64,000 bases of DNA. Origin: Schmidtea polychroa (taxonomy: Eukaryota). How positions within the stretch are numbered: the stretch's first letter is position 1; every line of letters begins with the position of its first letter. The stretch lies in assembly GCA_044892525.1 (NCBI GenBank), contig CM097885.1, forward strand, positions 21,144,001 through 21,208,000, in the 5' to 3' direction. Positions 45,101 through 48,100 of the stretch are shown piece by piece. The notes under the pieces were generated by a model. It made no database searches and was not told the origin of the DNA. It saw only the letters and a list, made by a program, of their open reading frames with translations. The position numbers and the translations under genes are program-made.

Positions 45101-48100
45101 ATCGCTATAGTAAATTGAAAATTTAAAAAAATCGATTAGGCAAAAGTAAAATAATTACTACAGTTTGACAATTACTAAAAAATCTCTATTTCGTGAGTTT
45201 AATATCTGGAATTTTATACCAATTTTCAAGATATATCAAAGTTCCGCCAAGTAAAACGAATAATTTTAAGAAAGATTTCTAAAAGAAAAATAAGCAATCG
45301 GAAACTATAGAATACAAATATTTTGCCACCAAACATCCCTTTCAAGATATATCAAAGTTCCGCCAACAATCGGAAACTACAGAATACAAACATTTTGCCA
45401 CCAAACTTCCCTTTCAAGATATATCAAAGTTCCGACAAGTAAAACGAGTAATTTTAATAAAGAATTCTAAAAGAAAATTAATAAGTCAGAAACTACAGAG
45501 TACAAACATTTTTCCAACAAACATCTCCTTCAAGGTTTTTAATTTTGTTCTAATAAAAGTTTGGTTTCAATTCATATTATTGTTTATTATTATTTTTATT
45601 TATTTTATTTGTAGTTACACAACACGCACCCCGATTGTCCCGCCACAAGTTTTAACGGTGACTCTTTCGGGCTCATAAAATTTCTAACCAAACACTACAA
45701 CTCAGAAACATCCACAAATATATAAGGAACATAATAATATAACAGAAACAAATTCAAAATATTTAAAATCAATCATTATATGGGTATACTCTTTGATGAA
45801 AGAACTTCAATGACATTTAAACTTAAAAATTTAATGAATTACGGTCGAATTTAAACTAATGGGCGATCACTAGTAATGGTGAATTATGAGCTCGATGCGC
45901 GTCTGTGTGCGCGTTGTATTGTGTAATGGGTTTGTGTGCGCACACAGACGCGAGCAATTTCATTTTTGTGTGTGGTTGTTAGTTGATCTCGCGTCTGTGT
46001 GCGCTTTTCTTTTCTTTGGTTTTGGCTGTGTGCGCACACAGACGCGAGCAAGAGGTATTTCGATTTTTAAATGGGTTTAATTGTTAATTTTTATTTGATT
46101 TAGTAGTTTTAGAAATTATGGATTTGAAACTGGATTAAATTAGATTTGTTTAAAATTGGATTTTTTGGTGGAGTTTTAAACAGCTTTCGGTTTTAGATAA
46201 AGTTCCTTTGTTAAAATGACTTCAGGTGTTAAATGTGATCCTTCAGTTGAAGAATATCTTAACTACATTAAATTACAACACAGATTCAAATATGTAATTT
46301 TTGGACTCAACAAACAGAAGGATAGAATTATTCAATTAGAAACTGGCGAATTAGGTACTCCTTATGAAAAATTCAGATTACATATGATCAAAACATATGC
46401 TAAAGAAGGTTGCTATGGATTATATGACTATCAGGGTACTTTGGCGTTTATTTCATGGATACCAGACACAATGAAAATCAATGGTCGTATGATTATGGCT
46501 GCTTTAAAATCTGACATTGGAATGGACATGATCCCTGATTGTCGATCGCAAGTTTATCGTGCACAAATGGAAGCAGCTCGATTTAATTCTGGATATGGAT
46601 ATGAAATGCCTTGCGACATAATATGTCGTTCTATTGCGGATATTAAGCAGCTTTCTACCCAATCAACTGAGATGCGACCATTAGGTTGTTCAATGATGGC
46701 TTTATCCTATAGTATTGAAATGGACAATTTGTTGTTGTTATTCAAAACTGGCTCTATGGATGGAAATAAAATTATTATGCGTTATTTTGAATTTAAACAT
46801 AAACAAGTAATAATATATGCAATGTCAATTGAAAAGAAATCAGAGGTGAAAATTGAAAAAGGTTCTTAAAATAATAATAGGATATAAATATTTTTAATTT
46901 TTATTTGATAATTTATTTAATATAGGATATGGTTTAACCGAAGCATGTGGCGTATCACATTTAACTCCAAATGGCAATGATAATAAAAAAAAATTAGGTT
47001 CAGTTGGTCAACTGATATCAGGTGTTGAATGCAAAGTTTATTTTTATTTTAATATTTTCGGATCATTTGCCTAAAATGCAGATTGCAAATATAGAAACAC
47101 GACAGGAATTACCAGCCGGTGAAGTTGGTGAAATTCTACTAAGGGGACCGAATATAATGAAAGGTTATTATAAAAATCCTACAGAAACAGCAAATTCTTT
47201 TGAGGATGGATGGTTGAAAACAGGTATAATATTTTTTTTAATTCTAATTATATTTAATTGATGGCAACTAAATTAACCGTCTGTGTCTCATTAGGAAAAT
47301 TCGACCCATGTGCAGATTATGAAAACACTAACATTTCAGATTTTCTTTACATTTGATATATGTATGTTACAAAGTCAAAAAATGAATTCTTTAATTAAAT
47401 CAATTGTTTTACAAGATAAAATTAATAAAAATCCATAAAATCATTAATTAGTTTCATTACAGTATTATATTGATAATCAATTTGATCTAGTATATGTAGT
47501 GACATATCAAAGTGTTTTAGAGTTGAGTTATACTGATAAATTTTTAACATCTATAGCTTTGGAGTTTAGAGATAAATATAAAAATGTGCTTGAATCTCAA
47601 AATTTTCCTTGTGACTTTTCTGATTTCGTACCACTAGTTGATTCCACGTTTTTGACAGTAAAAAAATAATTTTATGTCTAAGCCAAAAAAGGAAATTATA
47701 TCTTTTCAAAAATCATATAAAGCGGCTAAAACTTTAAACAAAAATACATAGATGCTGGATAAAGGGATAATTCCAAAAATAGCAACAATTAAAATCTGCA
47801 CTTTTAAAAACAGAAATTCTATTGACTTTAACAAAACAGGGTGTACTGACATTCGAAATGGAGTGTCAACAGGGATTTCATATATAAGTCGACTGATTTC
47901 TCAGTCAAACCACCCAAAAAATAAGAGCTTCTAAGAAGAATTGCAAATTCAGAAATTGATATTGCAATATAATTTAGAGCATACCTATTTTACACATCGG
48001 AGCTCAAGAAGCTGCAAGCATTCACATACATATACACAAGCATATATATACTTATATATAAAAACACTAATTATATTTTTGAGGTAATTGTTAATTTTAT

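Follow-up and report, generated by a model that had tools for sequence, protein, structure and literature searches.

How two fragments of host genes came to be joined in one reading frame, and what carried them to their present position, is the question raised by a locus of Schmidtea polychroa, which we analysed within a 64,000-nt stretch of DNA (the window, to whose first letter all positions refer). An intron-less open reading frame (ORF) fuses there a piece of cofilin to a piece of the proteasome subunit PSMA6, behind two palindromic hairpins. An earlier note had attributed the arrangement to gene-fragment capture, either by a mobile element of the Pack or Helitron type or through an RNA template switch.

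A solo LTR in a host intron

The unit that carries the ORF has TG...CA ends, which match those of related long terminal repeats (LTRs), and is 929 bp long (45877..46805, + strand). It is enclosed by two copies of the 5-bp target-site duplication AGTAA (45872..45876 and 46806..46810, both +). Both of its ends are found in a related LTR (L178), whose 3′ end is the same as that of the window copy and is directly followed by a primer site. The unit had previously been placed at 45896..46869, which is right for the stop of the ORF at 46869 but not for the element, since this begins at 45877 and ends at 46805. Judged from its sequence, the unit is a solo LTR from a family of BEL/Pao-type retrotransposons, inserted in an intron of an AMP-binding enzyme gene. 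The intron (38035..46925, +, 8.9 kb), which also holds a Gypsy element, has GT at 38035 and AG at 46924-46925, and the coding exons of the host gene match the Pfam family AMP-binding. In a contig of run X3 the upstream host exon is joined to the exon at 46926, with the solo LTR and the Gypsy element skipped. The contigs of run X8, which may be the assembly's own sample, span both insertion junctions with 0 differences.

The DNA directly downstream of the LTR is an unrelated dispersed repeat that lies outside the element (46816..46870, +), and is found again at 964-1008 and 3833-3867 of the window, as well as in 8 fetched loci. This short repeat has a very high depth in run X8.

Composition and origin of the chimeric ORF

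The ORF (46216..46869, +) runs for 217 codons from the ATG at 46216 to the TAA at 46867-46869, its last 21 codons being flanking DNA. The fusion of cofilin and PSMA6-like pieces was borne out by Pfam, with Cofilin_ADF matched at residues 14-101 (E = 1.6e-11) and Proteasome at residues 105-183 (E = 1e-9), and by a PDB search with the ORF, whose top matches were proteasome alpha type-6. The stop lies 56 bp upstream of the host exon at 46926, as first reported. The tail that had been left unidentified consists of the 3′ end of the LTR itself (46751..46805, +), in the frame by which longer copies reach ubiquitin-Gag, and of the 21 flanking codons. Because these codons derive from the flanking DNA, the similarity of the 3′ end to 963-1020 is explained by a repeat outside the element: the resemblance itself is real (46817-46860 versus 964-1008, 91% over 45 nt), but it does not belong to the captured unit. 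The LTR 3′ end contains an AATAAA at 46765, 40 nt before the LTR terminus, which is likely to be the poly(A) signal predicted for the element.

The cofilin part starts with captured upstream sequence and the start codon (46175..46218, +), identical to the parent gene (L106) in 43 of 44 nt, and continues with a coding fragment without the C-terminus (46216..46522, +), identified by Pfam and by comparison with the parent. Two introns of the parent, the one after the ATG and one of 42 nt, are both precisely absent, and the window piece differs from the parent exons at 9 positions in 297 nt. The PSMA6 part (46528..46750, +; identified by Pfam, PDB and its parent) is an internal fragment in its native frame, which covers the site of a 43-nt intron of the parent gene (L111); this intron is missing, with substitutions nearby. 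Another PSMA6 copy (L097) has lost two introns exactly. The PSMA6 parent was absent among the best 20 loci of a PF10584 search, and was recovered with a flatworm C-terminal piece as the query; the best protein matches of a longer PSMA6 copy are also from flatworms. Both parents were thus found as the earlier note had suggested they should be sought, with two cofilin introns and one PSMA6 intron lost, and its proposal of capture through an RNA template switch by a mobile element agrees with this loss. Since the introns of both genes are absent, the fragments were captured via spliced mRNA. At the junction of cofilin and PSMA6, which has mutated since, short stretches of similarity can be seen. 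In addition, the gene of a different proteasome alpha subunit is present as degenerate copies at three loci (L102, L103 and L091), with the hairpin about 200 nt upstream in L102.

The window LTR is itself composite. Both of its ends resemble a subfamily with PSMA6-type LTRs (179/185 nt to L055 and 214/228 nt to L075; the ends also match L178), and its middle resembles a cofilin-type subfamily (513/532 nt to L003). This three-part mosaic is likely to be a recombinant of the two LTR subfamilies, as far as the alignments can tell. Template switching between two family RNAs would be its simplest cause, with gene conversion after insertion as the alternative. No paired-LTR copy with exactly the mosaic of the window was found among the fetched copies.

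The inverted-repeat module

Two inverted-repeat modules lie near the 5′ end of the LTR, the first with 15-bp arms and a 25-nt spacer (45898..45952, +), the second with the same arms and a 27-nt spacer (45990..46046, +). The twin hairpins are present with the arms as first reported, and they fold better than all of 200 shuffled sequences (z = −5.2; 0/200 shuffles fold as well). The genome holds 1856 exact matches to the hairpin pattern and 0 to a reversed control, which answers the earlier call for a genome-wide search of the module. It is likely that the module is part of the LTR promoter or leader.

Covariation was examined in 97 distinct hairpins from loci chosen without the hairpin motif. 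Both arms are perfect in 63 of them; no compensatory change was found in the set, and the single changes keep a G-U pair in 22 cases and break the pair in 28. The arms are therefore held in sequence without compensatory changes, so that a purely structural role is unsupported; the pattern would fit either an inverted site bound by a protein or a stem in which sequence and structure are both under constraint. Rfam gave 0 matches for 9 loci at E values up to 1, so that these loci match no known family of ribozymes or other RNAs. We also considered a Penelope-like element bearing a hammerhead, an idea dropped because LTR pairs with gag/pol exist. At three loci (L003:1300-1525, L014:1267-1435 and L054:2165-2830) pieces of the LTR are joined in inverted orientation at the hairpin module, which suggests that copying folded back or was mis-primed there.

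The carrier family

A DNA search with the window unit gave 60 matches from the best 40 scored of 3618 candidates, and searches with the single pieces gave 348 candidates for cofilin and 1388 for PSMA6, of which 150 were scored in each case. In the stretches fetched around hairpin matches we found pairs of direct repeats 4-7 kb apart, with nearly identical LTRs in several copies: 857 bp at 99.9% (L047), 936 bp at 99.9% (L048/L049), 99.3% (L134), 98.7% (L135) and 97.6% (L046). The paired copies have a primer site behind the 5′ LTR and a polypurine tract ahead of the 3′ LTR. The primer site is complementary over 18 nt to a tRNA-Met gene in the genome, and exact junctions between an LTR end and the primer site occur 328 times. 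The genome contains 1228 matches to the tRNA-end motif, and the tRNA-Met that matches the primer site is encoded in a tandem array with a 454-bp unit (L183-L188, G000:C1 at about 79.3 Mb).

Internal ORFs of the family code for ubiquitin and DUF1759. The element at L048/L049, whose LTRs carry the hairpins as in the window, encodes ubiquitin, DUF1759 (E = 1e-11), RVT_1 (E = 4e-10) and Peptidase_A17 (E = 9e-46), together with weak matches to Integrase_H2C2 and DUF1758 that fall below the Pfam cut-offs. By domain content, and with the reverse transcriptase ahead of the RNase H-like peptidase and the integrase, the family is a BEL/Pao-type LTR retrotransposon. Solo LTRs were surveyed at 24 PSMA6-type loci, of which 3 proved to belong to longer copies, as their 5′ or 3′ LTR, and 5 had no end call; a perfect 5-bp target duplication is present in 14 of the 16 solo candidates with both ends called, the one in the window included.

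Many of the cofilin-type LTRs (L002-L026) lie within tracts of (ATT)n or (TA)n. Several extend 12 nt further and lack the final CA, yet show an apparent 5-bp duplication. Targeting to (ATT)n was considered and rejected: many cofilin-type copies do lie in microsatellites, but most PSMA6-type copies lie in ordinary DNA. Three cofilin-type solo LTRs form a tandem array, about 1.3 kb apart (L023-L025, G000:C3 at about 96.06 Mb).

In many copies the LTR frame leads into ubiquitin and Gag

In the paired copies the cargo is present in both LTRs, between their TG and CA ends. The frame that it keeps relative to Gag was examined in 40 copies, for which the primer motif was the sole criterion of choice and which come from the first 100 listed of the 328 junctions; these copies are all on contig 1, and loci already examined and some near neighbours were left out. 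A long LTR, defined by a hairpin more than 500 nt upstream of the primer site, is present in 26 of the 40 copies and missing from 14. Over 150 codons, the frame in phase with Gag contains no stop in 18 of the 26 long LTRs; for each of the other five frames this holds in 0/26. The counts are not independent, as the copies are related. The mean number of stops is 0.9 in the Gag-phase frame versus 6-15 in the other five, and in 8 of the 26 the Gag-phase frame is interrupted by stops. Over all 40 copies, the Gag-phase frame is stop-free in 19, versus 1, 0, 0, 0 and 0 for the others. Captured coding pieces are stop-free by origin, and only their common phase is informative. The ORF of the window has the same phase as the Gag-phase frame of the family.

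The frame continues beyond the LTR. The linker behind the primer site has a GC content of 25% and is stop-free in the Gag phase in 19 of 26 copies, versus 0 and 2 for the other phases; a splice-donor-like site follows the primer site, and the linker might be spliced out. Ubiquitin was found in 32 copies and shares the phase of Gag in 23 of them; in 14 of the 40 copies, an LTR ORF of 100 codons reads through into ubiquitin. Ubiquitin units that end with LCGG, LAGG or LRGG directly before Gag occur, as found with a pattern that requires the GG.

The cargo itself is varied, with pieces of PSMA6, cofilin, DUSP, EAP30, CCT, Rab and adaptin among it. Pfam supports PSMA6, EAP30, DSPc, Adaptin_N, Cpn60_TCP1 with Ras, HSP70 and a weak RING, and gave no match for 6 of 17 cargo ORFs. 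Further pieces, recognised by eye, are presumably RACK1-like and Prp19-like. Across copies the cargo is freely truncated, duplicated and swapped. A PSMA6 unit of 78-87 nt is tandemly duplicated within the LTR with the frame kept in four loci (L006, L008, L020 and L149).

Selection and transcription

The fragments might be kept in the LTRs for a function of their own, as dominant-negative proteins or as small-RNA decoys that match essential genes of the host, an explanation that shares with the one we prefer a solo LTR with RNA-derived cargo. The recurrence of the PSMA6 piece in many subfamilies (the 150 scored of 1388 candidates) would speak for it, as would the changes common to at least 3 copies in a set of 21 cofilin copies (indel-bearing ones skipped), for which pN/pS is 0.31. 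This value, however, comes from just 16 changes (9 N, 7 S) with parent-lineage substitutions included, and the rare changes of the same set give a pN/pS of 1.07. In the window copy, 7 nonsynonymous and 2 synonymous changes against 239:58 sites correspond to neutrality, so that no protein selection on the cofilin piece is seen by this comparison. The free truncation, duplication and swapping of cargo also argue against a function of the fragments, which we consider improbable.

Still less credible is a functional host chimeric gene at the window locus, driven by the solo LTR. The 217 codons are open, with an ATG of their own and an AATAAA, and a contig of the probable-RNA run X1 covers the cofilin/PSMA6 junction. 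This contig has 4 differences in 103 nt and may represent another copy; it gives a weak hint of transcription of the family rather than of the window locus, and contigs of the runs cannot give the start, strand or level of a transcript. Furthermore, open ORFs are common among the copies, the substitutions are neutral, the stop codon belongs to the flanking DNA and the AATAAA is situated within the ORF. The window ORF is today most likely a passive remnant in an inert solo LTR, and the value of the locus is as evidence for the swapping of cargo between LTR subfamilies.

A proposed mechanism for capture and release of the cargo

The explanation that we consider quite probable as a whole is that the window unit is a solo LTR of a high-copy BEL/Pao-type family, which bears intron-less cargo within its LTRs in frame to ubiquitin-Gag, the cargo being captured by template switching and removed by deubiquitinases. 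Transcription would start near the inverted-repeat module at the 5′ end of the LTR and poly(A) would be added near its 3′ end, so that most of the LTR would be R and would be recopied from RNA in each cycle. The fragments were likely captured by switching of the reverse transcriptase onto co-packaged mRNAs. A fragment caught in R during strand transfer would reach both LTRs, and would spread only if the Gag frame stays open. The LTR ORF would be translated, and Gag would probably be released from the leader by host deubiquitinases acting on the ubiquitin units; the content of the leader would then become irrelevant. For the window copy, a switch between PSMA6-type and cofilin-type LTRs would have been followed by insertion and by loss of the interior through LTR-LTR recombination.

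A broader interpretation, to which we lean only slightly, is that the LTR of this BEL/Pao lineage has become a cassette that is translated and can be exchanged, with ubiquitin freeing Gag and solo LTRs acting as an engine of exon shuffling. If true, host mRNA fragments would accumulate in a long R region and be shuffled between subfamilies, and the formation of solo LTRs would leave many hundreds of promoter-ORF-poly(A) mini-genes genome-wide.

Comparison with known systems

The TG...CA LTRs, the 5-bp target duplication, the tRNA primer site, the polypurine tract and the many solo LTRs are all as in known BEL/Pao retrotransposons, and so are the DUF1759 gag, the Pao peptidase (Peptidase_A17) and the position of the reverse transcriptase before the integrase. 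In contrast to these elements, the ORF of the present family starts within the LTR, is made of host mRNA pieces, and passes through the primer site and then through one or two units of ubiquitin before it reaches Gag.

The closest parallel for the capture is provided by LTR-mediated retrocopies (Tan et al. 2016, PMC5131818), described in the passages available as partial, intron-less and sometimes chimeras of two genes produced by template switching; one of them lies in a Pao element, and retrocopies can be re-mobilised. The present family shares with them the loss of introns relative to the parents and the template-switch chimeras. As far as these passages go, those retrocopies replace part of the internal ORFs, whereas here the cargo is inside the LTR, at both ends of the element, survives in solo LTRs, and leaves gag (and pol too, in one fetched copy) in phase. 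In the passages of a review (PMC13317346), maize Bs1 is reported to fuse three host gene segments in a chimeric ORF, and BARE-2 to have acquired foreign LTR sequence from another retrotransposon via abnormal template switching; unlike the present family, neither is described there with a ubiquitin-Gag fusion or with many interchangeable cargos. The giant planarian Gypsy element Burro/GYPSM1, of about 30 kb, is likewise an LTR element with host-like domains, carried in its polyprotein and including a Ubi2/SUMO-like motif (PMC6431247, in part). The same passages list capture downstream of pol or between LTRs. The extra domains of Burro are in the internal ORF of a Gypsy element, whereas the present family is Pao-type, measures 4-7 kb and has variable cargo in the LTR.

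Ubiquitin as a release signal has a precedent in cytopathic pestiviruses, RNA viruses in which captured ubiquitin is a processing signal cleaved by the host within the polyprotein. The role of ubiquitin would be alike in the present family, where cleavage is inferred, and the two differ in that pestiviruses are RNA viruses.

Helitrons produce no target duplication and have a short 3′ hairpin before a CTRR end, and Pack-TIR elements (Pack-MULEs included) have an inverted pair at both ends and capture DNA with its introns. DNA capture by either type, which the earlier note had suggested and which palindromic hairpins and mixed gene fragments would fit, has a negligible chance and is refuted by the paired-LTR copies and by the intron loss: the window hairpins are internal and at one end only, with no pair at both termini among the inverted repeats listed, the unit has TG...CA ends and a 5-bp duplication, and the family has a tRNA-Met primer site, a polypurine tract and gag/pol.

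Host coding mosaics within an LTR in phase with ubiquitin-Gag are absent from the passages of PMC5131818, PMC13317346 and PMC6431247 mentioned above. We found no published description of the family, and the 2018 planarian genome paper, its supplements or repeat databases could hold one. Word searches gave no 'Pao' or 'BEL' in PMC11410931, and no 'Schmidtea', 'Smed', 'ubiquitin' or 'Belpao' in the main text of PMC13524379. Both the class of element and the chemistry of capture are already known. What is unusual is where the cargo lies and how it is coupled to Gag, and at the level of DNA both have good support. If the reading given above holds, it describes a new route of capture, by which cargo placed in the LTR outlasts the recombination that normally erases the interiors of retrotransposons. 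Gene annotation, read mapping and the design of RNAi in this genome will also be confused by essential genes, cofilin and PSMA6 among them, that recur as hundreds of partial copies, and essential host transcripts may come within reach of small RNAs that silence transposons.

Other elements in the window

The Gypsy-type LTR element that shares the host intron (39631-45744) has a 5-bp target duplication of its own, GAAAC, and its gag and pol are broken across several frames. It is separate from the solo LTR, with a gap of 132 bp to the LTR unit. Further upstream, at about 10000-34500, the window holds Polinton/Maverick-like genes (DNA_pol_B_2, an integrase, a Pox_A32 ATPase and an adenoviral-type protease) together with two long ORFs that have no Pfam match, and related repeats are found again at 62200-64000.
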